Below, one piece after another: positions 17,401 to 64,000 of a stretch of 64,000 bases of DNA. The stretch covers positions 66,340,001 to 66,404,000 of the forward strand of contig NC_086378.1 in NCBI RefSeq assembly GCF_036588685.1, in the 5' to 3' direction. Under the pieces are notes generated by a model, which did not search any database, was not told the DNA's origin, and saw only the letters and a program-made list of their open reading frames with translations. Within the stretch, counting starts at the first letter, position 1. Every line of letters starts with the position of its first letter. The stretch comes from Mytilus trossulus (taxonomy: Eukaryota). A program made the position numbers and the translations under genes.

Positions 17401-17559
17401 TTGCCGTCGAAAAGCCTTCTTTTTGTCAACGAAAAACTGTATAACATAAAATTATCCTTTATTCCTACCATAACGGCAAGGATGAAAATGCAGTTAGCTA
17501 AAGATTGAAACAGAAGGATATAATGGTAGTGGTTTACTGGGTGGAATGTCTGAATGATG

Positions 17560-21600: not shown

Positions 21601-21911
21601 TGCGTATTTCGATCACCGGATTTTCACGAGAGTTCAATGCATACGGAAAACATATCGACGAATTGTTTACTGGAAGCAAACAATTAGAAAAAGTAAATAC
21701 CTTCAAAATTAGGACAGATTATAGAATTTTCTTGAAAAAAAGTTTATGTACCTATGTTTTATACAAAACTTTGATTTTTTCAAAAAACTAAGGATTGTCT
21801 TATCCCAGGAATAGAATACCTTATCCTTATTTGTCACAACGTTTTGGGATTTTTGGTTCACAAGGCTCTTCAACTTTGTACTTGTTTGGCTTCGTAACTA
21901 TTTTGATCGGC

Positions 21912-21955
21912 GCGTCACTGATGAGTCTTAGGTAGATGAAACGCGCGTATGGCGT
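21912..21955 (+). ncRNA. Type I hammerhead ribozyme motif, intact CUGAUGA/GAAA core, in a retrozyme-like repeat (~21340-22000)
   Basis: GCGTCA-CTGATGA-GTCT(TAGGT)AGAT-GAA-ACGCGCGT-A-TGGCGT. Cleavage triplet GUA; the stem II closing pair is G-U. Confidence 0.82.
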
Positions 21956-26300: not shown

Positions 26301-29300
26301 ACTTAATTCAGGTTGGTTCAAAATTATTACTTTATCAAATGTTTTATTGGGTTGCTGTTTCGTTGACCTTTATTCGACATCTGTTTGAATTCATTTTGTA
26401 TTTTGTAATTTTAGTGTTATATATAACATTGCCATAAAAACGGGAGATTTGGCTGCTCACAAAACCACTAAATATGTTTCTACCAATAGTTATTAGCGTA
26501 TAAATATAATGGACATCAGTTTACAGATGAGCTAAGATGGTAAAACATAGGATCTAAATTGTTTTCTTCTTCGAAAAAGATGAAATTAAATTTTGACAAA
26601 TGTTATCATTCTGTAGATTCATTTATTTTCGTGGGTATCAATTTTCGTGGATTGCTGAACATTTGTATATTCGTGGATATTTGATTTCGTGGTTTTTTCA
26701 ATCTTTGTATACAAAGCTTATTGAAAATATGATATTCGTTCAACATTTGAATTCGTGGTTTACCTGTATCCACGAAACCCACGAAAATTGGTATCAAACG
26801 AATAATAATGAATCCACAGTATAAAGTTTGATTTAGCTGGATATGACATATTACTCAGTGTTGGCTCGCGCAATGCATTCCTAGATGGAAACACTTATCC
26901 TACCAATTTCGATTTTTTTTTAGTTCATGCTGTTTTTCTAGTTTTATTTCTTATCTGAACTAAAACTCTTCGATATATAAGGTTTGAATTTTACAACAAA
27001 AAGTATACTTTGATACAAAAAACATGTAAATGCGTTTACTAATTTATATTTTGTCAGAAAGCTGTGTAAATTGCTATTTTAGTTATATTATCAAACGTGA
27101 GTTGTCAGCATTAAAATTTTAAGATCATATTAACCTGATCGTGTATCAAAACAATTTAACATAATTTTGAAAGTCTTAGTTAAAATGGTTTTTTATCCTA
27201 CCGCCTACTTTATAGTAATATTATGTTTGCTTAGTATTACTTATATGATAAACATTGGTATATTTCAGGACCATGCGTTGCTGGATGTGTTGGCACTAAA
27301 ATGCCAAGATATTGTCTGTTTGGTGACACAGTCAATACAGCATCTAGAATGCAGTCTTTCGGCATCGGTAAGCCCACCTTTAATATGTATTGAAATTACC
27401 TAGCGTCTTAAAAAATCTTACGTTCTTTAAAAATGTTTTTGAAATTTTGTGTGATTATGAAAACAGATTGTAAATAAATGCAAGACTCGGCACAATGCCA
27501 TGAAAAACAAACATAAGACAAAGGACCAGCGCTTTGATTTCTAATCTCAAAGTCATAGTTTTCAAATCAGAGCAACATATTTCTATCCAACCAAAAGTTA
27601 ACAACGATCTCTCGCAATGCCTTGGATAAGTTTTGATTCGAATTGCGTTAAAGATAATGCCAAAACTAAGAGTTTTCTTGTCATACAACACACCGATAAG
27701 GATTAATTTAGATTAATTCCTACCATAGAGAGGTCATCTGAAACCTGCACTGAAATGAATACTAAAAAAACATATCTTGATGTGTGAACTTTGGGCTCTA
27801 TTAACAATAGTATGGATTTCTTCTGTAAATTTAAGCCGATCATTCATTAATTTTTTTTCTAAATTACCATTCCAATAAATTTAAACAAAATCTGAGTATG
27901 CGATGTTGTTTTAAAGCTGTTATCAACAACACACATAGCTGATTTTAATAACGTATGTATAATTGTTACAAAATGTGATATAAATTTTATTTGCAATGTT
28001 AGAATACTTTTTGAATAATTAGAAATTTCATCCCTTTAAATAAAGTAAAATGAATGAATCGGAAATAAAACTAATTTCTACTTTGAAACAAAACCCCTTC
28101 AACCAGATGAAATAGCAATGAAATTTCTTTAAAAAAAGATTTTTAACAGAGATAGTGCAGTCATATTTCAGTTTTAATTCATATTGTTAAAGGGTGCAGA
28201 TCATCAAATACCTGAATGAGTGCTGCATGGAAATGAAAAATCTGGTAAAAGGTAAAATCACAAAAAAATGAACTCCGAGGAAAGTACAAAACGGAAAGTC
28301 CCTAATCATTTATCAAAATTAAAAGCTCAAACTCATCAAACGAATGGATAACAACTGTCATATTCCAGACTTAGTATAGGAAGGATTACCAACTTCTACA
28401 TTACAAAATTATGTATTAACAAAACAAACAGACACAATAGGTAAAAATGTTAAAATAGGGGTGTAACAGTGTGAGTATCTTAATAATAAAAAAAATATGT
28501 TACACAAAAGTGCAAAAAATCACTCACAACGAAAGACAGGAATACAAATAAATAACATAGCATAGTAGCACAATGATGGGATACAAAAGTACCCTGTCAC
28601 GTCAAATGAATATCACCAAAAAATAGAGTAAAAAAAAGTAATATTAAAAGGACAAATTACAGAAAACTACATGACGGTATAAAGACGATAATTAATGTCA
28701 GTTTCCAAAATCTGTACTTTTAGTCCATCATGTATTATTTGTGAAGTTAATACGGAATATTTACCAGCAATGGCTTGGTGCCTTCCGATTAACTTCGAAA
28801 AAGGACGGGACTTTCTTTGATATAGTCATGTTTCATCTTTTTTCTACTCAGTGTCTGCAGCTGCAAGCTCGTCAATACTAAATAAGTTATATAAGGTATA
28901 TTGCTACTAAGGTGTGAGAAATAATTTCAAAACTAAAGTCGTCTCGTTTGTAATAGATTCTGGAACTGAGATGACCGTGTATGTCAAAAACGAGACATAA
29001 GACTTAAAATGACATGTTAGATGGAGCAGTTTATGTACCATCAGAACGTGCATACGAATTATTTATCTCCCAATTGATACAATATTCCCTGGCCGGTATT
29101 TCGTATCATGATTTCCTTGATAGATTTGCTACTTGCAAGGAAGGTTTTAAACTAAGAGTTCCAACTGGTGAAGTTAAAATCATCCCTTCCAAAATTTAAC
29201 GGACGCCATCACGAGTTGGTTGATCGTTATGGAATGTCCGTTTTACAGATGATATCGGATATGTTCCAACAATCACGTTGCTTTTTACGAATGTGACCTA

Positions 29301-31488
29301 CCGAATCAGACTATTTACTAAGTTTGTTATAACATGAGCAACACGATGGGGCCACAGGAGGAACAGGATCTGATTACCCTTCCGGATAACCTAAGATCAA
29401 CCCCGGTATATCTATAAATTTGACTTTCCCTCTGGTGTCTTTCGCTGTTTTTTCCTTAATTTTCTAGTTCTTGGGATAGTATTTATTTAACTCAATCAGA
29501 AAACTTTGGATTGTTAATGGAAAGATCATCATCAATACATCTGAATGTGAAATTAATTAGCTGGCTTCTTTAATTTTCTTGTTTTTGTCATGGTGTTCGA
29601 ACTCTTTTTACCTTTTTGTAGCACCTGATATCCTCCTTCTCTCCGTGGGGATCTGATAAAATGTTTTAGAACATGTTTGTAGTCGATTTCAATTTCATAC
29701 CATGACGTTATATATTTTTTCGTCGACTTACGGATTTTGATTATATCTTTGGTATCTTCTGTCTCTGTTCTACACAAACCATTTTAGGCGGCCATGGTAA
29801 TTTTAACAAAATAGTCTTTACATGTTACTAAGACCGCCATTGACATCTTTGTAATGAAATTATTCAAATTTTATTGTAGGTGGAAAGATACATATAAGTA
29901 GTGTTACACAAGAAATCTTGAGCCATATTGGGAATTTTATAACAGAGTTCAGAGGTCTTATTGATGTGAAGGTAATAATTTATGCTACTTGTTATGTACT
30001 TGCAAGTAAATATTCCGTTTATATTTAAGAATTAAATGCTCTTTTTTGTAAATTTATTGGGGTGTAAAAGCGTTGACCGAACTACAGTTTGTATGAAGCG
30101 CGAAAGCGCTTCATACTAAAAATGTGCTCACGGTCAACGATTTTACAACCCTATAAATTACAAAAAAGCATTCAATACTTATAATTATTACAATTTATAT
30201 TTGAAGATATATATATGTGATAAGTTCGTTTACCTTAGTTTATAAATATATTTATACTGCTTTCTAATCGCCTATAAGTGTCATCAAACAGATATACAAA
30301 AGAGCTAAGGGTACAATATGGGTCGAATAGAATAGTTTAAATTTATAGCATTTGAAAGGGCTATAGCAGAGAATCTTAAAGTATAAGTTATTGTTGTTTT
30401 CTGTTTAAAACCTTAAGATTGTGAGATTTATTGTAAACGTGATTTATTAAATTATATTTGAAAAAAAAAAATATCAAAACTAATTTCCTTTCTTAGAAAT
30501 AGCTTTTATATCTTACTACCCCTTGCATTTCCTATTCCCATTTAAAGGCATTCGGGATATAAGGAAGAAAATAAAATAAACTAATACAATATATAGTAAG
30601 GACATATGCACATTTTGCAACCTGTGTCGTATCGTTATATTAGCATTACTTATATCTACAAATTCTTAATAGTAACAGGATTATAACTTAGTACGTCAAA
30701 CGCACGTTTCGTCTGCATAAACTCATCAGTGAGGCTCATTTCAAAATATTTTTCAAGCCACACAAGTAAAAAGTTGAAGAGTATTAGAATAAAAAATTTC
30801 AAAACGTCGTGCCGAATACGGCTAAGGTAATCTATGCCTGGGATAATTAAATCTTTAGTTCTAAAATATGATATTTTTTACATGATTTTGAACTCCGTTT
30901 TCAAAACCATCAACGGCCGTGTCTCTTTGTCTTTTTTACAAATACACATATAAATTTGTTTACCCATTTTAACAAGATAAATTTCCATTACTACGGACAC
31001 TTAATTGATGTGTTTTTTTCAAAATACCTGTCTAGCCTGGTCTATGGTGAGCGAGCAGGTTAAAACATACATATTTGGCTTTAAAATTATATGAATTGTC
31101 CGTACCCGTTAACTTACAATTTAGAAAAGAGCTCACATGAACGTCAATTCCTTTCAAATATCAAATTAAAGAAATAAAGGTTCATCAAACATGTTGTTTG
31201 TTATTTGTTACGATACTCTAGATCAAAACTGAATCACTCGTCATCCTTTAGAAAAGAAGCACGACTGTGTTGTTAGAATACGGTCCCGAAAGACATTTAT
31301 TGTTGAATGCGCATCTGGAGCAGATATGTTTGTATCGATGATTTAATTAGCATAATTGTTGGTTACAGCTAGAGAGAAACATTAGACTAAAATGAAATTC
31401 TACACTAACAATCTGTGTATCTTTATAGGGAAAAGGACAAATGGCTACATATTGGTTGGAGAAATTCCAAGTTGGCAAACATGTGTAA
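23337..31488 (+). CDS. NIT-domain receptor guanylyl cyclase (NIT-GC), copy B; exons 23337-24751, 26097-26311, 27269-27367, 29880-29971, 31429-31488; 626 aa
   Basis: Same exon lengths, splice sites and motifs as copy A, with an intact frame. About 15 amino-acid differences from copy A, counted by eye. Confidence 0.93.
26611..26819. mobile_element. Paralogous copy of the 9613-9821 MITE
   Basis: Near-identical sequence at the equivalent intron position. Confidence 0.7.
30026..30187. mobile_element. Family 2 element, hairpin half only (intron 4 of NIT-GC B; absent from copy A)
   Basis: Nested inverted repeat with a GTATGAAGCGC-GAAA-GCGCTTCATAC core. It ends at AATACTTATAATTA. Confidence 0.72.
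30693..30735 (-). ncRNA. Type I hammerhead motif with intact core in a retrozyme-like repeat (~30650-30865), intron 4 of NIT-GC B
   Basis: Reverse complement: GCCTCA-CTGATGA-GTTT(ATGC)AGAC-GAA-ACGTGCGT-T-TGACGT. The NUH triplet is GUU. Confidence 0.78.
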
Positions 31489-34400
31489 GGCATTCCATAC
31501 ATCATTCACAGCATCAATATGTTCTGAAATATTAGAGTCGCACGTGAGAGACATTCTGATCAAGCCAAAGCTGTAAACAAAATCAGACAGGTGCCTAGTC
31601 ATGTATAATGTTTGAATATTTGTGTTTGATATTTATGTAATTTTGTTGTAGATAATTGCGTATTGACATTCATATGCATATTTGAAGATGAATAATTTAC
31701 AATATACTATGTATTACTGCAAAATAATCGAGAATAAACAGCTGAACAAATTAAAACACGTTCATTTTATATAAATGCTACTCAAATAACATATTGCATA
31801 TAGAGAAATGTTGTATTAATGATATAGCCTGGCCTGGTCTGTCAAACCGAATTTTTACTAGATTGTGTTAAAAAAAACTTTAATCAGTCAGGATTCTACT
31901 TCATCAAAATTAGCTCCCTATTACGCCAGTTCATTTTTACAATTGTAGAAATGGAAGCCGTTGTAGGGATGACACGCTGACAATTAAGCTCTTGAAAAAC
32001 GATAAATGTATCCACATAGCACCATTACGATTCTTATATGTCAGTTGTATTTTTAAAGATAATGTATCTATTAGCTAATGAGCATCAGTTAATGTTCCTG
32101 TCTGCACTCAGTCAACTTTAAACTATTGTCTGATCTGTTGTCAGGTAGAATTTTCGAAAATTCATCTAAAAACTACTAAATATTTCGAAGAAGGGCAGAC
32201 TGAATATGTTCAGTGGTTGAAGACTATAGACCCTAATTATCACACACAATTCTTTTTTTCGAAGATATGCATTTTAGCATCCAACTTAAAAGACTGTCGT
32301 CAAGTACTTTAAACAAAAACTAGCTATTCGAACACACCTATCCTGTTTTGTGATTAATTAGAAAGGTATTCACTTGACCCATATATTTTATCTTTTAGTA
32401 CTGTGAAATTCTTATGTTATAAAGTCAACCTGTAGCCTTGATATATATAAATGATAGAATCTGAAGCGAGATGATGTATAAAATACTCTTGTGTTACAGT
32501 GTAACCCAATGTTTTTGATTTACATAGTGGAAGGGCAGACTCGAAAAATTACTGAACTAATTAATTGATATGTTCTGCGTCTGTGGTATTTTTTTTTGAA
32601 ATCGGAGGCTAGGCATTTTCTACATCCATCTTCATAGATATCTATGGTGTCGACTTGATTTATAATTATTCTGCTTAACTTTGTAATATATATATATATT
32701 GTAAACTTATGCAAATAGTGTTTTTAAAATAAAATACTTCGTAATTGAGCAGAAAATTTCATTTTATTTCTTTTCATAAACTTTTAAAAAAAATATTACT
32801 TTAGTAAACATTACAATAAGCGAAGCATTTATCGCCTTCTCTAACAAATATCTTCGTTTTTTTGTTCTATTTTAACTGGGGTTTCGCCTGTAATGCATAA
32901 AGCTATCTACCTACTTAGGCATTTTTTTTTAAATCGATATTAATCTATATCAACTTTCAAACTGAAGTAAAATAAATTATAAGAAGCGGAATGGCAGAAA
33001 TTTATAGGAACAGTCAGATCTATTGACTTCACCTCTCACATAAAATAAAGTAAAATATAATTTGTGTTACCTATAGTAGACATCATTCCTGTTTGAAGGG
33101 TTGTACAGTAGTCATTTATGGGCCCTTTACAGATTGCTGTTCGGTGTAAGCCAAGGCTCATTGTTGAAGAACGTACTTTTACTTATAATTGATTACTTCT
33201 TACTTGGATTGAGAGTTTTTCTCATCTGCACTTATACCACATCTTCCTATATCTATCATTACATGATACTTAAATTAAATACAATGACGCGATGACTAAC
33301 ACAGATTGAATCATAGATATACATAGAAGAGATATTAATATTTTCTCGTGTTTATTACTTCTTTGTTGACACCTAATATCTACCTGAACATCTAATTGTC
33401 ATAGCATATTCTTTACAAAGTTAACACTATTTAAATGAGATAGTCACGAACAACGCAAATCGGTCAATAAAAAGGCTTGAGTGGGAAGAGTTAATATAGA
33501 CGTTAAATTATGTATAGTTGTATTTTATGTTTGGTGCGATAATCCATATGATATTGTCAGCTTCAGAAAAAAATAATTGTATATTTGGGTACACTTAATA
33601 CAATTACATTTTCATAATCTATTTTCTATCCACTCTGCTTTTTTTTTGGTATCGGCTTCGACTAAAAGTAAAAAATGTAGCAAAATCATAAAAGTACTGA
33701 AATCCGAAGAAAATTATAAAAGGAAAGACCCTAATCAAATGGCAAAATCCCAAGGTCAAACACATCAAACGAATGGATAACAAATGTGTAGAAAATGATG
33801 TATTAAACCTGATTTTAAAGCTTGATAAACCCCTTACTTGTATGCATATGACAGTCGAATTTCATTATATTGACAACCACGTGTAAACAAAACAAACAGA
33901 CATAATAGCGAAAGGATGCAAAATAGGGATACAGCAGTCAACATTATGTTATGTTCCTCATCATTATAAAACAAACAAACGATGTCAAATACATGTATCA
34001 ATATTCTGATCACAAGCGTTATAAAAAACTTGATCAAAAAGTGCATGCAAGGCGAAACATGAAGACCATAGCAAATAAAAAAACAAACTATTTGAAGTGG
34101 TTTGTCAATTTTGAGTATTATTATAATGTTGTTGCATTCATTTGCATAATTTGACAACCTGCATACCAAGGTATCCACTTCAGGGACTATTGAAATGATT
34201 CACACAGGCGTTGTTCACCAATCGGAGTTTAATCAAGGAAACTGATAAATGCCGACAAATTACTCTTTGCAAGTCTTCGTCATATACACATTCTACAGGT
34301 GTGGCGTGTGAAATGATATACATATCAGTGACAATATTCAACGGAAATACTTCTGCGTACGAAGAAATTACAAAATAAAGTTGGCTTAAATTGCCGTCGA

Positions 34401-34539
34401 AAAGCCTTCTTTTTTCATAAAAAAACTGTAAAACATAAAATCTGATATTATCCCTACCATACTGACACGGATGAAAAATGAAGTTGGCTAAAGATTGAAA
34501 TATAATGATATAATGGTAGTGTTTTATTGGTGGAATTTC

Positions 34540-35600
34540 AATGAAAGATGATATTCAAACACATATGAAGTACCAGTTAAAGATTAGCTATATATCCAGA
34601 TGTAGAATTAACATAAGAAATTCCTCGCAGTTTTTGTGTTTAGGCAAATACATTATTTACTTGAATAAAAAATATGAATACATTAAAGAAGGGTACCAAC
34701 AAAGTAATCTTGCACCTGAAATGAAACGTATATAACCACAACTTACTAAATTTGTTTACAAGTGTTAAAAATGAACACTCACTTCACGTATCGCAGATCG
34801 AATACAAACAACAAAAGAGGAGGAATTTACGAAAATGCAAGACGAATAAGAATTTAAATGCAGCAATGGTTGGTTTGGTCGTTTTAAAGATCAACATAAC
34901 ATCACATTTAAGAAACTTCTAGAGAGGCAACACATGTTGATGTTTACAGTCAAGGTATGAAAGATTGGGTAACAAAAATGTAAAGCATAATGGCAGCATA
35001 ACACCGGACAACATCTTCAAGCTGACCATTCGGATACTTTGCTATTTTCTAAATTGTTGCAAAAATACACTTAACGAGTGTCAAAGTTTAGATTGTCACA
35101 GGAGGAGACGGATCTGCTTACCCTTCCTGAGTAGCTGATATCTCGCCCAGTTTTGAGCAAAGTATTTAGTTTTCTATGTTGTGTCGTGTGTACTATTGTT
35201 TTTCTGTTGTCTTTTTTTTTAGCCATTGTGTTGTCATTTTTTTGTAATGTTTAAAAGGTCAAACATAATGAAGAGTATTAAAACAGAGTTAATTGTTACT
35301 ATCCTAGATGCACTCCGATTTCTTCACCGAGCTTGGTCTCAGTCATAACCACCACATAAGCAACGGTTCTATACAGGCAAATGTAAGTGTTGACATTTTA
35401 TATTCAGTGTTTTAAGATGCCGATGTCGATGATATTCCACTTGTCCGTCTTGTATGAATAAATTTTATGGAATACGACAGCATCGACATTGATAATTCAT
35501 TCACTGAGCAACTGAGCGACGATATCTTCAACAAGATAACTTCGACAATGAAAAAGACAGAAGAACTTGTTTTGTTTCCCGAGTTTTTCCGTAATCTATA
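34540..35600 (+). mobile_element. Tigger/pogo fossil, second copy (N-terminal part joined to C-terminal part, DDE core missing)
   Basis: GYQQSNLAPEMKRI and CSNGWFGRFK, then VTILDALRFLHRAWSQ, typical of the Tigger C-terminal region. Confidence 0.75.
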
Positions 35601-36421: not shown

Positions 36422-37567
36422 TTATCCGACTTTAGGATAGAAACGACCATTAAATAAAATAAGACCTGATTTGATATCTCTTACATAAAACAAAAAGGGT
36501 CTATTTGCCAAAAATAGAGGAAAGCTACTTCTAAGTGTAATTCCAAAAGCTGTTCCTGCAGCTCCCTCTACACCTGCTTCGTTCATGTTGAAGACAACTT
36601 TATGGACAGCAATCTTGACGTATAAATTTGGTGTCTTCTCAACAATGAGATTAGAGAAGTTTGCTTTACCTGAGTTAAAAATATCTGTTACTGCAAGTTT
36701 AGGTAGTTCTTTCGTTAAATCAAAATCTGACTCTAATTTGAATTTTGGAATAAAGATATCCATACGTTTTCTAGTAAATCCAGTAGAAATATCCGATAGG
36801 AATTCCAATGATATCCTCGATTCAATATACTTAAGCTCAACTTCTTTATCTGGTAAAATGAAGACCATATCAAAGTTTCCTCCCTTGAATGGTAACGCTA
36901 TAGCAGTGAAGTCAACGCCTTTGTAATATGGAACATCTGATCTTATGCTCATCATTTCAACTTCAATCGTTTTGTTGTTTGGGAGTAAAAAGTTTTGCTT
37001 GCTTGTTAATTTTGGTGAAAATTGTCTCTCCCAAGTTGCTTTAAAATAAACTGCATTTATTATGAACAGAACAGTGTCATCGTCTATCATGTCCTCTTTG
37101 ATCAAATTCTTAATTTTTCCGTTTGTCTGTTTCGACACCCATCTATTCATCACAAATGCAGATGCCTTGGGTGTTGTAAAATCCTTCATACTGATATCAG
37201 CCCCAAAATATTGTTTTGCCTTCTGTCTGACATTTTGCAGAACTGTGAATCTGTTGTCTACAAATAATCTATTTGCACTAGCCAAACTCACATTAACTCC
37301 AGCTTGTTGAATTATATAGCTATTCAGTGACTTGTAATATTTCAACTTTTCTTCCTCTGAAAATATGTTATTTTTAAAAAGAGCCGATGATATTTGTTGT
37401 TGGGATCGTCCCCTTGCTCCAACCATTAACAATAGAACCGCCGCCGTGATACTATACGGTGATATACATAAACTCTCCTTCTTATCTAATTCTCCATACA
37501 ATGATGTCGAGAATTCAATTAAACTGTGTCCATAGTTAGCAGGAATTCCCGCCATCATAGCCATCAT
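36422..37567 (-). CDS. Serpin (leukocyte elastase inhibitor/serpin B-like, no signal peptide), P1 Arg
   Basis: 381-aa ORF with ISPYSI, NRWVSKQTNGKIKNL, INAVYFKATW, IPKFKLE, hinge EAGVEGAAGT, reactive loop AFGITLR|SS and FLANRPFLF. A splice acceptor (tttatttcag) lies 28 nt upstream of the ATG, indicating a 5'UTR intron. Confidence 0.95.
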   Translation of the reverse strand: MMAMMAGIPANYGHSLIEFSTSLYGELDKKESLCISPYSITAAVLLLMVGARGRSQQQISSALFKNNIFSEEEKLKYYKSLNSYIIQQAGVNVSLASANRLFVDNRFTVLQNVRQKAKQYFGADISMKDFTTPKASAFVMNRWVSKQTNGKIKNLIKEDMIDDDTVLFIINAVYFKATWERQFSPKLTSKQNFLLPNNKTIEVEMMSIRSDVPYYKGVDFTAIALPFKGGNFDMVFILPDKEVELKYIESRISLEFLSDISTGFTRKRMDIFIPKFKLESDFDLTKELPKLAVTDIFNSGKANFSNLIVEKTPNLYVKIAVHKVVFNMNEAGVEGAAGTAFGITLRSSFPLFLANRPFLFYVRDIKSGLILFNGRFYPKVG

Positions 37568-40718: not shown

Positions 40719-41861
40719 TTATCCGACTTTAGGATAGAAACGACCAATGAATAAAAGAAGACCTGATTTGATATCTCTTACGTAAAACAAAAACGGTCTA
40801 TTTGCCAAAAAACGTGGTGCACTACTTCGAAATGAAATCCCAAAAGCTGTTCCTGCAGCTCCCTCGACTCCTGCTTCGTTCACATTGAAGACAACTTTAT
40901 GTACAGCAACCTTGACGTATAAATTTGGTGTCTTCTCAACAATGAGATTGGAGAAGTTAGCTTTACTTGGTTGAAAAATATCTGTTACTGCAAGTTTTGG
41001 CAGTTCTTTCGTTAAATCAAAATCTGACTGTAACTTGAATTTTGGAATAAAGATATCCAAATATTTTGTATTAAATCCAGCAGAAATGTTAGATAGAAAT
41101 TCCAATGATATCTTCGATTCAATATGCTTAAGTTCCACTTTTGTATCTGGTAAAATGAAAACCATATCAAAGTTACCTCCCTTGAATGGTAACGCTATAG
41201 CAGTGAAGTCAACGCCTTTGTAATATGGTACATGTAAACTTATGCTCATCATGTCAACTTGAATCTTTTTGTTGTTTGGTAGCAGAAAGTCTCGCTTGCT
41301 GGTTTTCTTTGGTGAAAACTGTTTCTCCCACGTCGCTTTAAAATAAATTGCATTTATTATGAACATAACAGTGGCATCGTTTATCCAATCATCTTTGATC
41401 AAATTCTTTATTTTGCCGTTTGTCTGTTTCGACACCCACCTATTCATAACGAATACAGCTGCCTTGGGTCTTTTAAAATCCTTCAAGCTGATATCGGCCT
41501 CAAAATATCGTTTTGCCTTCTTTCTGACATTTTGCAGTACTGTGAATCTGTTGTTTACAAATAATCTATTTGCACTAGCCAAACTCACATTAACTCCAGC
41601 TTGTTGAGTTATATAGCTATTCAGTGACTTGTAATATTTCAACTTTTCCTCCTCTGAAAATATGCTATTTTTGAAAAGAGCCGATGATATTTGTTGCTGA
41701 GATCGTCCCCTTGCTCCAACCATTAATAGTAGAAACGCTGCCGTGATACTATACGGTGATATACATAAACTCTCTGTCTTATCTAATTCTCGATACAAGG
41801 ATGTTGAGAATTCAATTAAACTGTGTCCATAGTTATTAGGAATTCCAGCCATCATAGCCAT
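40719..41861 (-). CDS. Serpin paralog 2, P1 Arg
   Basis: Intact ORF with the first ATG at 41861 (the ORF track starts at a GTG). Same serpin motifs, reactive loop AFGISFR|SS. Acceptor AG at 41893-41894. Confidence 0.95.
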   Translation of the reverse strand: MAMMAGIPNNYGHSLIEFSTSLYRELDKTESLCISPYSITAAFLLLMVGARGRSQQQISSALFKNSIFSEEEKLKYYKSLNSYITQQAGVNVSLASANRLFVNNRFTVLQNVRKKAKRYFEADISLKDFKRPKAAVFVMNRWVSKQTNGKIKNLIKDDWINDATVMFIINAIYFKATWEKQFSPKKTSKRDFLLPNNKKIQVDMMSISLHVPYYKGVDFTAIALPFKGGNFDMVFILPDTKVELKHIESKISLEFLSNISAGFNTKYLDIFIPKFKLQSDFDLTKELPKLAVTDIFQPSKANFSNLIVEKTPNLYVKVAVHKVVFNVNEAGVEGAAGTAFGISFRSSAPRFLANRPFLFYVRDIKSGLLLFIGRFYPKVG

Positions 41862-42369
41862 CACCCAGTTCAGTTTAGTAGAAGATGCTTCACTGAAATA
41901 AACCGAACCGCAACCAACACTTCATAAAGTATTTGTGAACAAATACAAATCGTATGCGATTATACAGTAGGTTTTAATAACTAGTATTTGGTTTGTGCTT
42001 TAATAGACAATTAGACTAAACTTCTAAGCTTAACCAACAGTTATCTTATTATTGCTGTGTATTTGATACGAAGCAGAAAATGGCATGTGTTGCGGAAAAA
42101 ATATTACACTTAGGTAAACATAATTAGGGTATTTGCATTTAACAAATAGAAAAATATTCCGATTTATTTCCTGATCGTTTAGTGAAAAAGTAATAATCAG
42201 ACGTTGCAATTATGCAAATTTGTGTATTGTTTCTACTGATGTGTAATATTTTTGAATTATAGATGTTTTACAAAAGATTCTGTTATTTGAATTTTTCATG
42301 AAAGCGACTTAGTAAATGAAACAAAAGAAAGATTGTAGACCAATCAAGACTGATTCAAGTAAGACGTCT

Positions 42370-43889: not shown

Positions 43890-44932
43890 CAAAGCACTTT
43901 TTATGAAAATCTTTTAATTGAAGATGAAAAACAATTATCAATGAATTGTCCTGTGTATGAAGATTTGCATTGTTATTTGTTTTATCAAGCATCTCTATTC
44001 AACGTTAATTTTATGCAATTGTCTCATGACTTTAGTTTATATTTTTATTCACAGATGAAAATATGTACTTTTATCCTGCAATTAGGTGTCCTACTATACA
44101 GATACAGCCCTACATATATCGCTGTGCTGTATCTGTATACTATACAGATATCGCGTTAAAGCTCCGCCCACTGTCGGACTGAGTATTGTTTGAACCTGTG
44201 TGACCTCAGAATGTGTAGTCCAGTTGCATTCCAATGACGATGACAATGTGTATGATTGTGTTACAAATCATCCATGTCAATATCAGCATGCATGTTTAGT
44301 GATGTCAAGTCTGAAGCGTAGGACAACTTGTACACTTCTTTTTCAAATTTGACAATGTTTTGTTATTTTTTTGTACTGTTGCAATTAGTTGTAATGTTAA
44401 AGTAGATAATTATTCACCTTGAGCGATGTATTATTCTAGTGTAATATTCCTGACGTGTATTAATGTATTATTCTTCTCAGCGTAATATGAGATTTCGATA
44501 TTACTACGCGGGCCTCTAAGGATTACAAATCGAAAATAAATGCTAAATATGATTATATGTTAATTTTTGTGTCTTTCAAAACACAAACAATATACAGAAT
44601 TAATTGCAGGATAAAGACAATAACTGTTTAGTGTCTTTAAATATCAGCTGTATTTGTACTCGGCTCGAAACATGTGTAGTAGCTCGCTAAAAGCTCGCAT
44701 ACACCTTGTTTCCTAGCCTCGTACAAACAGTTATTGTCTATTTATACCAAAATTTGCAAAGACATTTACCAAAAAGAAAATGTATGATATTTAGCTAATT
44801 GTACTGTAAATGATGTATATAACTTTTAGAAAGTCACTCATAATGCTTGATGTTTTATTAGCTATTTGGTATGTTTTATATAATGAAAGGGGTAATATTT
44901 AAATAAAATATTGTCTTGTGTTGTCTTGTCTT
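43890..44932 (+). mobile_element. LINE 3' end (C-terminal Cys-motif region and (TTGTC)n tail) split by the 44070-44745 insertion
   Basis: IEDEKQLSMNCPVYEDL resembles the LINE C-terminal motif. The frame ENMYFY|TKICKDIYQK is restored when the insert is removed. AATAAA plus TTGTC repeats at ~44901-44932. Confidence 0.6.
44070..44745. mobile_element. Non-coding element with internal complement of its joined termini and a long imperfect hairpin (family 1)
   Basis: Left end TTTATCCTGCAATTA (44070-84); internal TAATTGCAGGATAAAGACAATAACTGTTT (44601-29); right end AAACAGTTATTGTCT-A-TTTAT (44725-45). Confidence 0.7.
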
Positions 44933-46577: not shown

Positions 46578-47215
46578 AAAAGAGGGACGAAAGATAACAA
46601 AGGGACTGTCAAAGTCATTAATCTAAAACAAACTGACAACGCCATGGCTAAAAATGAAAAAGACAAACAGACAAACAATAGTATACATGATACAACATAG
46701 ACAACTTAAGAATAAACAACACGTACCCCACCAAACAATTGGGGTGATCTCAGGTGCTCCGGAAGGGTAAACAGCTCCTGCTCCACATGTGGCACCCGTC
46801 GTGTTGCTTATGTAATAACAAATCCGGTAAACAGTCTAATTCGGAAGGTCACATTCATGAAAGGGAAGGGGATTATAGTTACGACATTTGTACGACGTAA
46901 GGAACATATCCGATATCATTAGTGAAACGGTTATTCCATTTCGGTCAATCAACTAGTGATGGCGTCCGCAAAATTTACGAAGGGATGTTTTCTACTTCAT
47001 CATTTGGAACTCTTGGTTTAATAGCTTCCGTGTGAGCAGCAACCCTCTATCAAGAAAATCATGATAGGAAATACAAGCACGGTAATATATGGTATCAATT
47101 TGGAGATATATACCCCGTATGAAGGTGCTGCTGGAATGTTGCTACTTAGAAATGGAAAGTTCACAATTGGAAAGATGAAATCATCTCTTTTGTTGTAAAG
47201 TTTTGTTTTCAACAT
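46578..47215 (-). mobile_element. Penelope-like retroelement 3' fragment (RT C-terminus + 3' UTR), family P1
   Basis: [60 protein letters not shown], followed by the shared GAGCAGGA.CTG.TTACCCTTCCGGAGCACCTGAGATCACCCC UTR. Confidence 0.7.
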
Positions 47216-48380
47216 AATTTATCCCATAAAGACTTGGGTCTCCTTAGAGATCTTTAGACGTAGTCAGATAAGTGCACGCAGCTGAGCAGTTTATATTGAA
47301 GGATTCATATAAAACGATTGAATAAAACATTGTATTGTAGTGTATTTAAAAAGCATACAGAAATGCCACTGAAATATAACGATGAAAAATTGCCCTTGCT
47401 ATTTTTGGTACCAGCATATAAAATCGAGTATAAATGATCAGTCTCGGTGAATGTTACAAGACACCAATTCTTCATATAATTTTGAAATAATTTCTAGTTG
47501 CCCTTCATTCATTCAAAAGATTTGATTTTGATTTAAAATTAGAATAAACCCACACATTGACAGTCTTCGTTAATAGTTGTAGCTTTTTCGTTATGTTTGA
47601 CAACTCTAGAGTCTTGAATAACAATTTAAATGTCGATAAAACACACAGGATAAGCTTTTGTATCAAACTGTTCAACCATTGTTTTGTTTTTGTATATTTT
47701 TTACCTTTAGGGTTTTGTCCATTTTTGTCAATATACGCTTGGTGTTACACGGTATTTATACATCTCGTGTGATAGTGCTATGACGCTATGAACTTTTTAG
47801 CATTCTTGTCTTTTGGTATTGCTTTGAACTCTGTCTATATAGTGTAATTATGCCATTTCATTTTTGTAAGTTGAAATAGTTATTTGTTTATAAAGGGATT
47901 AAGATTTCAACACAATGATGGCTGCTGGGCCCCTACTTCTACATGTGTACCTATTACGTGTGTTTATTTCGCTCATACAATGGTGTCAGTATAATAATTA
48001 AATGCGAATGTCTTACAAGTGAGAGATTAAGCTAGCCATAAAACCTGGTTTTATCCACCCTTTTCTACATAAGGAAATGCCTGTACAAAAGTCAGGATTT
48101 TTGACATTTTTCCATTTGTTTAGCCTTTTTAAGATTATCTTTGGAGTTTGGAATTTCCTCTAGAAAGCATATGTGTACTTGGGGGAAAGGTATATCTAGT
48201 AAGTGACCATTTGATTGAAATGATTTCTGATTAGTTAGATTGCGGTCCGCGCACAAACTCTTTTAATTTTAATTTCGGACTCCACCGTTACCACTGTTGT
48301 TGGTAATTGACTTATTCGTTATTGTAAAATTAGCATGAAATAAATGAGTTTTTACATCCTATAGCCGGCGTATTGTTGCT

Positions 48381-48753
48381 TAAGAATAGAATGCTTCATT
48401 TTGTAACTTCATTGGGGTGTAAAAGCATTGACCGAAGTACATTTTTTATAAAGCGCGGAAGCGCTACATTCTAAAAATGTGCGCACGGTCAACGCTTTTA
48501 CAAGCGTATGAAGTTACAGAAAGAAGCATTTAATACTATTAAGTACATTTAATAGCTAGGATCATGAAAACACGAATTTTATCAATGTATTTTATTTAAT
48601 TCACCTGTACTCTTTATTATGGGACCTCGTGTTATCATGAATGAAAAGTTTTATTGAGCAAATTAATGCAATTGCTTAAAGAATAAAATGTGATGTGCAG
48701 TTAGCCAATCAGAATAACGTATTATAGTGAAACATACATCTAATGTAATTATA
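48381..48753. mobile_element. Family 2 element, full-length copy with central AGCGC-GGAA-GCGCT hairpin
   Basis: Collinear with 59974-60309 from end to end. Confidence 0.75.
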
Positions 48754-50064: not shown

Positions 50065-51216
50065 TTATCCAGCGTTGACTTGTGGATGAAATCGACCAAT
50101 AAACAAGATGAGACCAGATTTGACATCTCTGACGTAAAACAAAAATGGTCTATTGGCTGTAAATTCTAAGCCTCCACCACTTTTAAAACCTACTCCAAAG
50201 ACTGTGCCAGCTGCTCCCTCCACTCCTGCTTCGTTCAAGTTGAAGACGGCTTTATGAACAGCAACCTTGACGAATAAATTGGGTGTCTTCTCAACAATAA
50301 GATTCGTGAAGTTAGCCTTCAACTCGTCAAATATTTCTGTAACTCCAAGTTTTGGTAATTCTACTTTTAGATCAAACTCAGACTGTAATTTAAACTTTGG
50401 GATGGTGATACTATTGAATCTGTTTTTAAATCCAGAGGAAATCGTTTTTAGGAATTTCGGTGTAATTTTAGTCTCAATATTCTGTAGTCCCACGTTTTCA
50501 TCTGGTAAAATGAATACCATATCGAAGTTTCCTCCAGTGAATGGTAACGCAATCGCGGTTAAGTCTTGTCCTTTAAAATATGGAACAGCTGTTCGTATGT
50601 TCATCATGTCAACTTCAATTGTTTTTTTGAAAGGGAGGTAAAACTTTCCTTTTCTTGTGTTTTTCGGTGAAAATTGTTTCTCCCATGTTGCTTTAAAATA
50701 TATTGCATTTACAATGAACATTACCATATCTGAATCTATCCATTCCTCCTTGATCAAATCCTTTATTTTGCCGTTTGTATGTTTTGACACCCATCTGTTC
50801 ATGATCATTGCAGATGCCTTGGGTGTTGTAAAATCTTTTAAGCTGATATCAGCTCCAAAGTATTGTTTTGCTTTTTCTCGGACATTCTGCAATACTGTGA
50901 ATTGGTTATTTACAAAAAGCCTATTTGCACTAGCCAAACTTACATTTACACCAGCTTGTTGAATTATGTAGCTGTTTAGGGACTTGTGATATCTCAACTT
51001 TTCCTCCTCTGAAAATACACTATTTTGAAAAAGAGCAGATGAAATTTGTTGTTTTGATCGTCCGCTTGCCCCAACCATCAACAGTAGAAACGCTGCTGTG
51101 ATACTATACGGTGACATACATAAACTCTCTTGCTTGTTTAATCCTTGATACAAAGATGTCGAAAATTCAATTAAACTTTGTTGATAGTCAATAGGAATAT
51201 CTACTAACGAAGCCAT
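50065..51216 (-). CDS. Serpin paralog 3 (more diverged), P1 Lys
   Basis: 383-aa ORF with serpin motifs, reactive loop VFGVGFK|SG and FTANRPFLF. Acceptor AG at 51246-51247. Confidence 0.95.
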   Translation of the reverse strand: MASLVDIPIDYQQSLIEFSTSLYQGLNKQESLCMSPYSITAAFLLLMVGASGRSKQQISSALFQNSVFSEEEKLRYHKSLNSYIIQQAGVNVSLASANRLFVNNQFTVLQNVREKAKQYFGADISLKDFTTPKASAMIMNRWVSKHTNGKIKDLIKEEWIDSDMVMFIVNAIYFKATWEKQFSPKNTRKGKFYLPFKKTIEVDMMNIRTAVPYFKGQDLTAIALPFTGGNFDMVFILPDENVGLQNIETKITPKFLKTISSGFKNRFNSITIPKFKLQSEFDLKVELPKLGVTEIFDELKANFTNLIVEKTPNLFVKVAVHKAVFNLNEAGVEGAAGTVFGVGFKSGGGLEFTANRPFLFYVRDVKSGLILFIGRFHPQVNAG

Positions 51217-52734
51217 TATTTCAGTCCTGTAGATGTAGTGTGATACTGAAATATCAGACTGCAGACAAAGTCCTATTACATGTGTACATTAAATGCAAAT
51301 TGTATGTAAATAGAACAAGCTTCCAACAAAATACAATATTTTTACTGAAATGCGCAATCTGGATTAACCTTTTTTATTCATAAATAGCTTATAAAAATAT
51401 GTTGTATATATGTTTTATAATACGCAGTAGTTGTCACGTTCGTTGTCGAGGACATTATGCGGTTTACCAGTTTTTACTTTGTTTGTCCGTTTAAATCGTG
51501 ACAAATATCCTGATTATTTTTCTTGTCATTTGTCAAATTTAAAATTTAGATACGCAAATGCAATTTTAGTGATTTCGTTATTATTTTTCTTTTACTTACA
51601 GAAGTCAAATATTTGATTATGCAATGGATTTAAGCATCTAGTTTTACTTCCGCATTTACATGTAGAAAAAGAGTTTAAAGATCTAAACTCTGAGGTTACT
51701 TCAAAACGGAAAGCCCCTTATCAAAACCTAAGCAAAACAAACAACATAAACGCACCAAACAAACGAATAACAACTGTCATATTTCTGACTTGGTACAAGC
51801 ATTTCTTGTGGCGGATTAAAACTTGATTTAAAGCTAGCTACACCTCTTACATTTGAATGACAGTTGCATCAAATTCAAATATATTGACATTATATTTCAG
51901 TATATGTGTTTTAATGCCATATAAACAAGTTCTAAGTTATATCTGGCAAATGATTACACAATGACATCTAAGATCGTATGGTAGCATATCACTGTTTGAC
52001 GTTCATCCATTGAACTCTAGTGGAAAGATGTCACATTAGCAATAGTACCGCGTCTCTTTTAATCGTATGCAGTTGTCTGAACTTTGTAATGTAAAATCCA
52101 TTCACAATTCAATCATTCCAACAACCATAAGGCACATGGCATAAAATGTTTAAAAAAGAACACATACATGTATATAAAAAAAGAATGTCAATTCGGATGG
52201 ACTACTTAATAACTTCAATTAATAACTAACTAAAAAAGAATTTCTGAAATTAAAACTGTATGTTAGTATTTTCATCTGTGGTACATGTGTTTATTTAAAT
52301 GTTTGTCTTATTAGGATCATCGCAGATCTTGACTTCAACCTTATAAATAATTTAAACAACCCGGTTATTTATTTGTAAGATGGCATGTTTAGGTTTCAAC
52401 ATGCTAAAGACGCGTATAAAAGGATGTATTTAAGATTAAGGCCTGAGGTATTGACTGAACATGAACGATTATTATAATAAATTTAGATATCTATTATTTG
52501 AGTGATATGAAAAGCGATGGTGATTGTGGTTAAAAATGATGTTTTAAAAACCAACGTCACCGATGATCAACTTCTCTTTTTTTTATAAACAGTAAAATGT
52601 ATTGAAAAAAAATCCCATTATGTCGTCCATATAGATATATCCCTAATGCGCCTAAAATTGATGAATACAAAAGTTGTACGTAAAACAAACAAAAAATATC
52701 TGAGTAGTATTATTGGACATGTTTCAATTCTTAA

Positions 52735-58800: not shown

Positions 58801-61800
58801 TTATTTGTTAAGTAAATGTTTATAACATAATCAGTATATGAATTAAAAATAAAGAAGTGTTTCTCTTAAATACAGCAGTTTCTTCAAACTAATAATAGCT
58901 ACAGAAATATTCGAGTCAGAAAATAACGCATTCTTATATTCTTAGTAAATAGACAACAGTATTTTGCCAAACACTTCTGTGTGGGTTTCATTTTTTTTTT
59001 ATAATTAATTTTAACGACTGAATGGTTTTCGCTTACCAATAATTTGTACGACTCCTACGCTGGTACCAGTAGCAGCAACAAATAGAAAGAACATGAAAGT
59101 TGTCCACTTACGTCCAATACTAAAAGTAGATTAAATACAAGCAAAACAATTTATGTATATTTGGAATATAAATATCATTTGCAAATGTATGGTGTTAAAA
59201 ATTGATTTATTTTGCTCGAAGTCCATTGCAAGACTACAAATCAGATTAAAAGTAAACTACATATTCAATTTCACGTATATACAAATCTTTGTCTTAAAGA
59301 AGTTTCATTATGTAGTCAATTAAAGAGACGCGACAGACACCATGCAAGGTCACATTCGGGGGGAGGACGGTTTTGAATTAAGACATTTGGAACATATTCG
59401 CTATCATTTGTAAAAGCCGATATTCCATAACGATCAAGCAAATCGTAATGGTGTACGGGAAATAACTTATGAATTATAACAACTTTATCCCTTGGAACTT
59501 ATCAGTTTTATATAGCATCCATGTGAGCAGTAACTCTCTATCAAGGAAATCATGATAGGAAATATACAAGCCCTGGAATATCGTATCAACTGGTATATAT
59601 GTACTCCGTATGCAGGTGCTGCTGAAATGTTGCTTCATAGAAAGGGTGTGAATTATAGTTAGATTTGATGACAAATAGAAATTGTCTGTATACGTGAATG
59701 TTCTTGTTTCATGATGGTTCACTGAAGACCTGCAACGAAGGAGCAAAGGTTGACAAATCAATATTGTTACACTTCAGAAAGGCCCGATCGAGAATGAATT
59801 TAATTTCTCCTTCAAATACTCATATTTATAGGAAATGTCTTTTCAACGTATGCTCTCTTTAAATAGAGACCAGTCGTACCATACAAGGACACATTCCTAG
59901 CATATTGCCGGTAAAAGATTTAAAGACGGACAATAACAATTATGTTTATAAATATGTGTTTAAAATTTACATTTAAGTATTGAATGCTTCTTTTTGTAAA
60001 TTTATTGGGGCGTAAAAGCGTTGACCGAAGTACATTTTGTATGACGCACGGTCAACGCTTTTACAACCCTATAAAGTTTCAAAAAGAAGCATTCAATACT
60101 TATAATTACATTTTTTAGCTATGATCATGAAAACAGGAATTTTACAATTTTTGTAGTTTATTCACCTGTGCACTTTATTGTGGGACCACGTGTTATCATG
60201 AATGAAATTTTTTATTGAGTGATGCAATTGCTGACGGAATAACATGTGATGTGCAGTTAACCAATCAAAATAAAGTATTATAATGAAACATACATCTAAT
60301 GTAATTATACTTAAATCTAATTTCATCTAAACATTTTCAATTTATTGTCAGGTATTAAAGTAGTTAAAAATGAAGTTGAAACAATGTTCTATACAGGTTT
60401 TTGGCAAACATTTTTTCCCACATTATAACTCCTATAGTTTTCAAACTTACTAATTAGCAATCTTAAACTTACCAGTGATTAAAAAACCAAGCTAACAATA
60501 AGGACGGTACTTCTACGATACTTAGTAAAAACATATTCAGATACAAACTTCCGGACAGCTGCTGGACACCGAACGATATGGCATAATATGTATAACCGCA
60601 TGAAATCCTTAAAAAGATAAATAAATTTTAAAAATTTTCATACATTAATTGAAGCAATTTATATTTGATTTACAGTACTACTTAAGTTTTTTTTTTATTG
60701 TAACGATGTGTTTCATTTGTAACTTTACATTATTTCAAATTAACCAAAATATATTTGATTTTGCAGAACGTTTTTTTTTTTACAGCAATTGTGCCATTAA
60801 GCTGTCAATTGATATTGTCCATATACAATGTATCTATTTGTGATATTTAAATGTGTATGACGTAGAGAATATCTATCTGTCACAGTGATTTTCGTAGGTT
60901 TTTTTGTGTGTGAAACGTCACTAAAGAATACAGGTTCGCGGAAATCTCATAACGCATACTATTTTTGATCCAACTGCGAAAAAAATATTTCCAGACATCT
61001 TTTTATTAAGTGGAATATTTTTAGGGTGCTGTCTCGTTGTCATAAATGCCAATAAGTATTCCATTCATGGAAACAGAAAAGACGTCTATCTTATTTTAAC
61101 TGTGTTATTTGGGAAATGACGTTTTGTCTTATTATCTTTTTGACATTTCCTTATTCCTACCATCCCACAGCCAGTAACATACTCCTCTTTAGTAAATCTG
61201 GATTCTTCAATACATCAAAATAAGTGTAATTGGTATTGTCTTGAGGCAAAGATTTCACAAGCATCTTTAGTCTGGATGTGTCTGGAAATGGATTTCCGTT
61301 AAATTTGGCGATCTTTCTGATAACCTCTTCTGCTTTCTCGACTTGATCGTTAGCGACTAACCATCGGAAGCTCTCCGGTATCAACCTAAAACACATTTAA
61401 TATCTAAACTGTGAATAATGGTTTCCTATCCTTGCATGGTCGGATAATAAAGCAAACATCTTAATATGTCCATCTGTTGAATTAAACAGTTAGTATCAAA
61501 AATCAGACTAAATAAACAATATACATAAAATGTATATCCAAACTATAATTACATGACGTACACTTTAATGACGTTACGTCACGAGTTATCGTTCCTGCTG
61601 TTGTCGGACAAACAGTTGGTAAAACAAACGAAGATATTTTTTAGATTTCTGAATTATATAAATGAGGGTATACTAGGTTTGGCTTACAGAATAGAGAATA
61701 ATGAGCAAAAACAATAAAAAATAGGAAATATAGGATGCTATAAAATTAAGAATAGACAATAACAAGCAAGAAATATAAATTATAGAGAGCATTGTTCAAA

Positions 61801-63184
61801 ATATTTTAAATGATTATTTTTTGTTTGTTTGTTTAAAATAATACATTACCACCATGTGAATAGCAGAGGAAATGTCACAGCAGCTGTAGCTATGTGTAAA
61901 TAAAACCAATCATGGATAAGATACGAAACTCCTCCGTAACTGGCAGCAAATATTGACCATATTGGAATAGCCAAAAGCATAGGTCTATATTTCCCGGTAA
62001 CAAATTCTATCTTGTATGTTAGATGCACCGTTAAATATATACCACATCCAATTCCAATAAAAAATCGCATAACGGCAAACATTTGCCAATTAACTGAAAA
62101 AGCTGCGATGAGATTTGAAACTATTAAAACAAGCAATGACAAAAAGAATGTCGGTTTTCTGCCAAATCTATCACCAAACTGTCCTGCTGCCAAACTACCC
62201 ACAAGTAAACCTCCCATTTGAATCGTTGTTATAGTTTGAGTAATATAATCCAGATCACAAACAAGATAGAACTGAAACAGAACAACGAAAATAATGTTTT
62301 TAAACTTTAAATAGTTAACAATGGCTCATCTTCGCTAGCTAAGGATTATGCTCCACTCCCCTATGCCTCCTCTCTTGTCTGGCACATTTTGATTAAAAAT
62401 AAATGCTTTCCATTGTATGAACTTTTCTTTGTTTTTTTGTTTTGTTTTTTGTTTTTTTCAATAACAGGAAGTTATACAGATATAGGAAGATGTGATATGA
62501 GTGCTAATGAGACAACACTCCATCTAAGTAACAATTTATAAAAATAAGCCATAATAGGTCAAGGTAGGGCCTTCAACACGAAGCCTTGGCTCACAATGAA
62601 CAGCAATCTATAAAGGGCCCCACAAATTACTAGTGTAAAACCATTCATACTGGAATATACATGTTTTTGTTTACTCTGTTTAAATTTCAAATATATTTCA
62701 ATTGATTCAAACATTCTTGATTTGATGACTCATCTTATAGGATAAAAAGATAGTTTTTAATAAACAACATAAAGTTTTAAAACTAGCAAGATGGTCCATA
62801 ATACTGCTTACTCATTGTACTAAAAATGTATTATGATAACGAATTCTTTCCATTTATAATCTGTTTCAAAATACGTACCTCGCTTACAATAGTATTAAGA
62901 GATGGATCGAAAACTTTACGTAGACAGCTCAAATCGCTATGATTACTAGGTGGGCTACAGGTTTGCTCTTGTGTACCGTTTATATGCACAATGTTTGAAG
63001 TCTGGTTCCCCCATTCACATGACCAGTTTGGTATTGCTCCTCCAAAGGTCATCATAAGAATACTCCAGGCAGTAGATATTTCTCCAAGAGAAAGACTGCC
63101 CACCACTAAAAGCTGGAAAACTCCAAAGCCCCCACATTTCACTAATGTTTCTTCTAGAAAGGAACTTAGTTCTACGGCGGACAT
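55834..63184 (-). CDS. SLC22-family organic cation/anion transporter (MFS); exons 63184-62879, 62271-61850, 61385-61161, 60607-60473, 59119-59037, 58522-58405, 56834-56762, 56019-55834; 515 aa
   Basis: Eight GT..AG exons join in phase (1548 nt). Motifs: GGFGVFQ, TIVSEFYLVCD, GDRFGRK, IPESFRWL, GSLYLN, IGRK, ESYPTVVRNIGYG, ARIGAMVAP, PDTK. The protein ends in SSYL*. Confidence 0.93.
58018..58380. repeat. Interspersed SINE-like repeat (other copies ~7915-8210, 25385-25680, 62485-62650, 55610-55690, and reverse at ~16010-16165 and 33105-33260)
   Basis: Shared blocks TGCCAATGAGACAAC, GCCTTCAACA, ACAAACGACAACCACTGAA and CTGACTTGGGACAGG. Confidence 0.6.
58581..58624 (-). repeat. Decayed hammerhead remnant in SLC22 intron
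   Basis: Reverse complement TCGTCA-ctactcc-GTCT(TTCGC)AGAC-aaaACGCGCGTC-TGTCGT: stems retained, catalytic core destroyed. Confidence 0.6.
59340..59635 (-). mobile_element. Family P1 fragment in SLC22 intron
   Basis: SNISAAPAYGVHIYQLIRYSRACIFPIM/YHDFLDRELLLT. Confidence 0.65.
59974..60309. mobile_element. Non-coding element with internal complement of its joined termini (family 2)
   Basis: Left end TAAGTATTGAATGCTTCTTTTTG; internal CAAAAAGAAGCATTCAATACTTATAATTACATT (60080-60112); right end AATGTAATTATA. Confidence 0.78.
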
Positions 63185-64000
63185 AACTGTACTGCTTCTT
63201 ATCGAGATGAAAGCTGCAAAATTGGATAAAAATAGAAGTATTATGTATAAAATAAACTAATATTTTTAACAGTTTTGTATATATGAGTGTTCGTGTTATA
63301 CAATTATCTTAAAAAGTAATAAAATCTTTTATTATCTAAAGCTTTCACAACGTGTTCTATTTTGCTTTTTGAACATGTGACCAAACTTGAATGCTTAGAC
63401 TTGACTACAAACTACAATTTTCAAACTTTTTAAAGGGTTTGAGTGTCCTAATTCACATAAACTGTTTTTATTCGACAATATATCATGACATATGCAAAGT
63501 TTTATAATTAAAAAATGAAGAAACATGTGAAATATGTTTAATGTCTTCAAGAGTGTTTATACGCGGTAAGCAGCCATTTGATTTTATTAAAATATTTTAA
63601 ATTGGTTCATTTTTCAAATTCCAACTAAATTTAAAGGTACACGGAGTGTCAATTGTACTAGATGGATGTAGTACTCAGTCACATAACACTGCAACATGAG
63701 ATGTGGCCAGCTGTGATCACTTGTTTGGCAAAAAAATATGAGATTCTAAATGTTCGTATATAAATATCTGTGTGTGTACCCATCCCCCTTTCCCTCTTTT
63801 ATTATCAAAAGTTGATGCCGTCTGCCTCCTTGTTTAGAATATCCACATTATTAATCCATGCAAATTTTAAAATAAAATGAGGTTTTAAATATTCGTATGA
63901 ATAGTGATTTTTTACCCGTCCCTTTTTATCCTCTGCCATTTTTAAAAGTTGGTGCTTACTTGCTTATAATATCGACATCGTTAATCCATGAGATTATAAA

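Follow-up and report, generated by a model that had tools for sequence, protein, structure and literature searches.

A non-coding, high-copy transposon of Mytilus trossulus with the end layout of Crypton-type recombinase elements and a proposed single-strand route of movement

The locus described here lies in a stretch of 64,000 nucleotides of Mytilus trossulus DNA (the window) and raises the question of what kind of element has both of its ends complemented by one contiguous internal stretch, and by which route such an element moves. We named the family at 59973-60308 FamB, and the first family, at 44070, FamA. We consider FamB to be a non-coding, high-copy transposon mobilised by a Crypton-type tyrosine recombinase (probability about 0.88), and it probably moves as a folded single DNA strand, with one strand exchange into the target. 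The mechanism is drawn from sharp ends, the lack of a duplication, the internal complement, a dyad target, one-sided products and coding elements of the same layout. The features of the window to which the text refers are:

59968..59972, plus strand: left half of the target dyad, in the host flank (A at -2, pyrimidine at -3)
59973..60308, minus strand: full non-autonomous FamB element, hairpin cap deleted (336 bp; ends from 51 copies and empty sites)
59974..59996, plus strand: FamB left end, outer arm of the long hairpin, pairing with 60080-60102
59997..60079, plus strand: inner portion of the long hairpin, which in this copy lacks the GCGC-GRAA-GCGC cap
60080..60112, plus strand: internal stretch complementary to the joined ends, falling 2 nt short of the end-to-end junction
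60113..60297, no strand: loop of about 185 bp without coding capacity; a CCAAT-type motif lies near 60266-60270, and neither the sequence nor the ORF list shows a protein
60298..60308, plus strand: FamB right end, short repeat pairing with the internal site, equal to the 5' repeat "a" in minus orientation
60309..60318, plus strand: right part of the target dyad, in the host flank (T at +8 is 60316)
48380..48752, minus strand: second full FamB copy, with GGAA cap (373 bp)
30025..30188, minus strand: third FamB copy, hairpin kept, loop deleted, both true ends present
44071..44741, plus strand: FamA, same layout, matching a recombinase-coding element (L148) at both ends

The surrounding window contains a tandem duplication of about 17.5 kb (406-18306 versus 19019-35243, 74 to 98% identity along its length), which carries a NIT and guanylate-cyclase gene (503-aa frames at 5861-7369 and 23334-24842). 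Three serpin-like uninterrupted frames of 381-407 aa are located at 36425-37567, 40722-41921 and 50068-51288 (minus), the first of them confirmed by Pfam, and exons of an MFS/sugar-type transporter at 61849-63256 (minus). An abundant repeat of about 640 bp (46578-47214, with copies at 5096, 11994, 22565, 29038, 42611, 49095 and 59389) did not present the end-complement layout in the window scan. Elsewhere in the genome, dozens of Helitron-type ORFs of about 2,900-3,100 aa were found, some of them in tandem about 20-23 kb apart, which suggests recent activity.

In the 59974 copy the left 23 nt (59974-59996) and the right 12 nt (60298-60309) are perfectly complementary to the contiguous 60080-60112, with a TA overlap, as the first-pass annotation had described, and a scan of the window for this layout gave two matches (FamB at 59974 and FamA at 44070) and 0 in 10 shuffles. 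The caps that it had reported are also present in the sequence (GAAA at 30095-30112, a GGAA loop near 48457, the cap missing from the 59974 copy), and the in-silico folding that it had suggested bore out the hairpin, the DNA fold of FamB having a z of -10.4 with 0/100 shuffles equally stable. A search of Rfam produced one weak miRNA-hairpin match (30.7 versus a gathering score of 100 bits), which was taken as chance. The unit is TTAAG...AATTAT (59973-60308), starting with TT and ending with AT, and no target duplication is seen at the empty sites (L015 versus L125, L017 versus L138/L140); the same boundaries were obtained from one end-to-end junction and from copies nested in other copies. Two details of the original description belong to the single copy and not to the family. 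The TA said to border both ends includes the base at 60309, which is flank and is A in only 15/51 copies, while the perfect 23-bp match of the left end, true of the 59974 copy, is peculiar to it, as 46/49 copies have an A.A mismatch at position 5, inside the pairing. The joined ends of FamB are 2 nt longer than the internal copy, a 3-versus-1-nt rule that was also met in FamA tandem arrays and in a third family inserted in a 99% identical locus pair. With these two extra nucleotides and the conserved A.A mismatch, the folded FamB junction would therefore have a central bubble.

A FamB search of the genome (1.3 Gb, 14 large contigs) led to 3,049 first-look candidates; 40 of them were scored, and the 30 that were fetched have identical start and stop points, so that the ragged ends that could have spoken against a mobile unit are not observed. 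The exact 21-nt right-end pattern has 1,106 occurrences, for a copy number above 1,100. The 30026 copy had been regarded as truncated at the internal site. It retains the true right end TAATTAT, and its flank shows the target signature (T at +8, A at +9), so that it reads as an internal (loop) deletion rather than a truncated insertion, with the two TAATTA palindromes as the probable deletion endpoints. Its reported absence from the paralogous stretch holds near 13030-13100, but the paralog is too diverged to serve as an exact empty site. Counting the copies that end at the internal site, as had been proposed, gave the same picture: among 30 fetched loci picked by the hairpin half alone, only the query ends there (0/29 others), 28 of the 29 continuing into the loop and one being interrupted by other sequence. 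A counterpart of the 30026 deletion is found in L232 (G000:C7, near 49566680-49566900), where a FamB copy in a Helitron-type element has kept the loop and lost the hairpin, and a rearranged FamB cluster at L153:1030-1643 has a shortened hairpin and an inverted piece beside a full copy. Contigs from public runs gave no usable empty allele when compared with the window, repeats dominating the matches, and only loose ends at 60308/60309 and 59971 with no partner sequence when compared with the element; no RNA dataset on record is listed as carrying FamB.

For the target analysis, 54 of 59 FamB loci had both ends, and three with flanks identical to those of L158 were dropped, leaving 51. On the plus strand the left flanks have T at -5 in 38, T at -4 in 37, a pyrimidine at -3 in 49 and A at -2 in 44, and the right flanks T at +8 in 44 and a purine at +9 in 44 (p about 1e-14 for A at -2 and T at +8). 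FamB inserts in a dyad, TTYA-N8-TR, at one base inside the spacer. FamA flanks (n = 23) show T at -3 in 22, A at -2 in 20, T at +8 in 18 and A at +9 in 16, and the pooled coding elements described below (n = 21) T at -3 in 15, A at -2 in 18 and T at +8 in 12, with significance limited to the dyad's left half. Cre cuts loxP one base into its 8-bp spacer. Two inverted arms around a 6-8-bp spacer are the site geometry of tyrosine recombinases according to Kojima and Jurka (2011; PMC3212892, drawn on here in part), who also report direct repeats of 4-6 bp for fungal Cryptons; a direct repeat was not found at FamB.

Elements with the same layout encode recombinases. Matches to DUF3504 in the genome number at least 150 (341 candidates), and 140 loci of 8-10 kb were fetched, in which at least 14 families recognised by eye consist of a short 5' repeat a, the gene, a', 1 nt and a long terminal hairpin. 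In young families (copies up to 99% identical) a hairpin of 60-85 bp downstream of the gene forms the exact end, and 1 nt separates it from a stretch complementary to the 9-15 nt with which the element starts. A strict layout test scored 47 of 139 oriented loci in gene orientation and 17 in mirror orientation, both counts including chance matches and one family being truly mirrored, and a looser count of long hairpins placed 38 of 59 downstream of the gene and 18 upstream. The recurrence of the layout in many unrelated families, recombinase-coding ones included, agrees with the earlier suggestion that it reflects a mechanism rather than chance. ORFs of at least 80 aa in such elements match only DUF3504, QRICH1 and Phage_integrase (78 ORFs, 15 elements), no RT, RNase H or DDE domain being detected in these 15, and the ORFs of L117 and L277 have no domain match. 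Most of the aligned recombinase frames keep the catalytic R, H-x-x-R, G-H and Y motifs; in one family the second catalytic R is replaced by K, and the C-terminal motifs are missing from L104. The 637-aa ORF of L099-L101 is an example of a young and intact recombinase. When a single recombinase exon was used to scan metagenomes, a short contig matched at 99%, and six other matches were weak (36-37%).

Some DUF3504 families are without the layout or mirrored (L105-L107, L092/L094). A DUF3504 element of 3.66 kb forms a three-unit tandem array in L092/L093 (G000:C8:8980600-8992000) and L094, and its ends are off the rule in gene orientation, with a hairpin near the 5' end and a short palindrome near the 3' end. 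L105-L107, L254, L256 and L268 represent a recombinase family with a 509-aa ORF, a mirrored layout and a shorter hairpin, some copies of which are inverted pairs about 3 kb apart (e.g., G000:C8:57998895 and 58001980).

By comparison of layouts, the minus strand of FamB corresponds to the gene direction of these relatives, with the short repeat at 5' and the long hairpin at 3', and the plus strand is predicted to be the one that folds and gets cut. Many hairpin loops of the coding elements read GC-GNA-GC or similar, mostly on the strand opposite the gene, which is the strand on which the cut is placed, and the GC-GRAA-GC loop of FamB is on that same strand. Loops of the GC-GNA-GC type have special stability in DNA. 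Judging from the loops of the related elements, the GNRA cap is more plausibly a mini-hairpin of DNA than an RNA tetraloop. The predicted folding energy of the cap is similar for the two strands, and the folding model does not separate them.

FamA can be aligned with the coding element of L148 from the first base (30/38) and to the last base (126/165), and the a/a' pair shows a compensatory change between them. FamA also forms head-to-tail arrays, and one of at least four units with a 698 bp period is seen in L044/L046/L037 (G000:C10:67486555-67489146). The third non-autonomous family of the same kind is located at L097:7230-7795, within a young coding element, and has an exact empty site in L096, with G at +8. 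Whereas FamA thus shares terminal sequence with a coding element, FamB does so with none in the 140 loci. A coding partner with FamB ends was sought by BLAST and a family profile in these 140 DUF3504-type loci, of several hundred candidates, and was not found, the hunt yielding only plain FamB insertions and one decayed copy (L109). The autonomous partner that the first-pass annotation had envisaged is therefore missing from the loci examined, and the assignment of FamB rests on shared layout, register and target.

In the mechanism that we propose, FamB would be moved in trans by a CryptonA-type recombinase. The plus strand would become single-stranded, probably at a replication fork, and both ends would pair with the internal stretch. 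The recombinase would then circularise the single strand by joining its ends, the internal copy keeping the junction double-stranded, and the central bubble of this junction (2 extra nt plus the A.A mismatch) would resemble the unpaired central spacer of integron attC. The folded site would exchange one strand with the duplex target TTYA-N^N7-TR, and replication would resolve the four-way junction into one filled and one empty daughter, so that copy number would rise and no overlap homology would be needed. We infer the source of the single strand, and the single-stranded and circular intermediates are part of the proposal only. Taken together, an attC-like route would be the most economical reading.

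The same Crypton-type recombinase could also act by the standard model, with a double-stranded circle and two strand exchanges, the internal complement merely repairing or joining the ends as in DIRS, or being an extra binding site. This is the published model for Cryptons (PMC3212892 and PMC13565253, both in part), the internal complementary region of DIRS is thought to act in end repair or joining (PMC7192593, in part), and the dyad target is compatible with both routes. Nevertheless, if two exchanges took place across a 6-bp overlap that does not match, two classes of product or coupling sequences derived from the flanks would be expected, with about half of the copies having the donor's first bases at the right end. 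Such right ends occur in 4 of the 1,106 exact ends, versus 3.5 expected from target composition, a test which by using exact patterns samples well-preserved copies, and strongly biased repair could mimic this one-sided count. The first bases of FamB are nearly invariant (49-51 of 51 copies), and the internal copy, being 2 nt shorter than the junction, would be a poor repair template. We therefore regard the standard model as unlikely, if still a serious competitor of the single-strand route.

The internal site had also been suggested to be recombinogenic on the basis of the supposed truncation. Truncation there does not recur among the 29 loci mentioned above, but the site does act as an insertion target, since in L291, L296 and L297 a FamB copy lies inside the internal site of an older copy at the same nucleotide, CATTCAA^TACTTA, the mirror of the junction cut. 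These insertions fall between the equivalents of 60096 and 60097, and additional inserted DNA has shifted the far junction in L297. For 1,100-10,000 copies, 0.001-0.08 such insertions would be expected on the basis of the target weight matrix, as compared to the three observed. L294, another nested-insertion match, was dropped as unrelated AT-rich DNA.

A non-autonomous Helitron2/Helentron (HINE-like), with asymmetric terminal inverted repeats, an unusually long 3' hairpin and an HUH Rep/helicase as its source of activity, is quite improbable. It would account for the lack of a target duplication, the head-to-tail arrays of FamA and the 5-bp stem TACAT/ATGTA visible at the 5' end of FamB, which is too short to weigh either way, and the genome contains many long Helitron-type ORFs. 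However, the layout flanks recombinase genes, and to our knowledge a dyad target is not expected of Helitron chemistry. In Helitron2 the partner of the 5' repeat is similarly placed just upstream of the 3' hairpin, but 20-30 bp from the end, as compared to about 130-160 bp in FamB (PMC3627910, in part). The 5' base of FamB is A, with a site A^A in Helitron orientation, versus the 5' T and insertion in TT of Helitron2, FamA being readable as T^T. As controls, six long Helitron loci of 115 matches were fetched, a small sample in which no ends common to FamB and a Rep/helicase-coding element were found. The pair H3/H4 did not align and was left out of the end reading, and the two pairs with alignable 3' ends have stems of 6 and 11 bp and nothing in common with FamB. 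The single FamB match in a Helitron is an insertion, the other Helitron copy being the empty site. A pair of adjacent foldback MITEs that target TA, or a DIRS retroelement in miniature, is less probable still and hardly tenable: the 59974 copy does have two consecutive inverted-repeat pairs with a common TA, DIRS outer ends are repeated side by side internally (PMC7192593, in part) and runs guessed to be RNA contain repeat pieces, but the MITE pair is largely refuted, as the halves travel together (28/29 hairpin-half copies continue into the loop) and a TA duplication is absent, and for DIRS neither RT nor RNase H nor DDE domains were found in the 15 same-layout coding elements, and long inverted terminal repeats are lacking. 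Membership of FamB in Helitron2 or DIRS was consequently rejected, on repeat distance and 5' base for the former and on RT/RNase H and long inverted LTRs for the latter.

Returning to the Crypton-type assignment, parts of the layout are known separately, and their combination for Cryptons is new within the literature searched, in which the layout was not found for Cryptons; the hairpin may already be described in Repbase, in Repbase Reports (e.g., CryptonV) or in the supplements of PMC3212892. Non-autonomous Helitron2/Helentron elements (PMC3627910, PMC5148889, both in part) are alike in the partner of the 5' repeat lying upstream of a 3' hairpin, in the lack of a target duplication and in tandem arrays. 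The differences are a hairpin of 60-85 bp (few bp in Helitron2) that reaches 3 nt from the end, the dyad target, and coding elements with a recombinase instead of a Rep/helicase, and the layout would help to classify abundant invertebrate repeats which resemble Helitron2 derivatives or MITEs but have recombinase-type ends. DIRS1-like elements (PMC7192593, in part) share both outer ends complemented side by side internally, a tyrosine recombinase and, as we would have it for FamB, a single-stranded intermediate. They possess RT, RNase H and long inverted LTRs, which FamB-type elements lack, and the FamB-type internal copy is 2 nt short, mismatched against the junction and opens directly into the terminal hairpin.

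CryptonA (Kojima and Jurka, 2011) is the closest in coding content, with recombinase-only coding elements matching DUF3504, which the recombinases of DIRS and Ngaro do not match, abundant non-autonomous derivatives and no long target duplication (PMC3212892, in part). Animal members are reported there without terminal repeats and the standing model is a double-stranded circle, whereas the elements studied here combine a long hairpin with a fixed asymmetric repeat, insert at a dyad and leave one-sided products. As the 2011 survey reports only that such repeats were not found, the FamB layout marks a variant and does not exclude kinship with Cryptons. According to a 2026 review (PMC13565253, in part), the Crypton mechanism has not been demonstrated experimentally and a duplex circle is assumed. 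With this layout both donor site and target are defined, the cut position is predicted and young coding elements are at hand, so that the mechanism can be tested directly.

In its working, FamB would be most like integron attC (PMC2727003, in part), where a single strand folds so as to leave a central spacer unpaired, undergoes one exchange and is resolved by replication, and with which the integration of CTX phage (PMC3442271) may be grouped as a folded-single-strand system. FamB differs in being eukaryotic and in having a site built from three separate segments and not from one palindrome, and the likeness is one of working, with no sequence kinship claimed. On balance we lean slightly towards the broader view that animal CryptonA transposons are the eukaryotic counterpart of integron cassettes, in which one tyrosine recombinase excises a single-stranded, self-folded circle and integrates it, through one strand exchange, at a loosely defined dyad. 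If true, this would explain the high copy numbers of animal CryptonA elements and their absence of visible terminal repeats, and would reveal a structure-programmed integrase already functional in animal cells.
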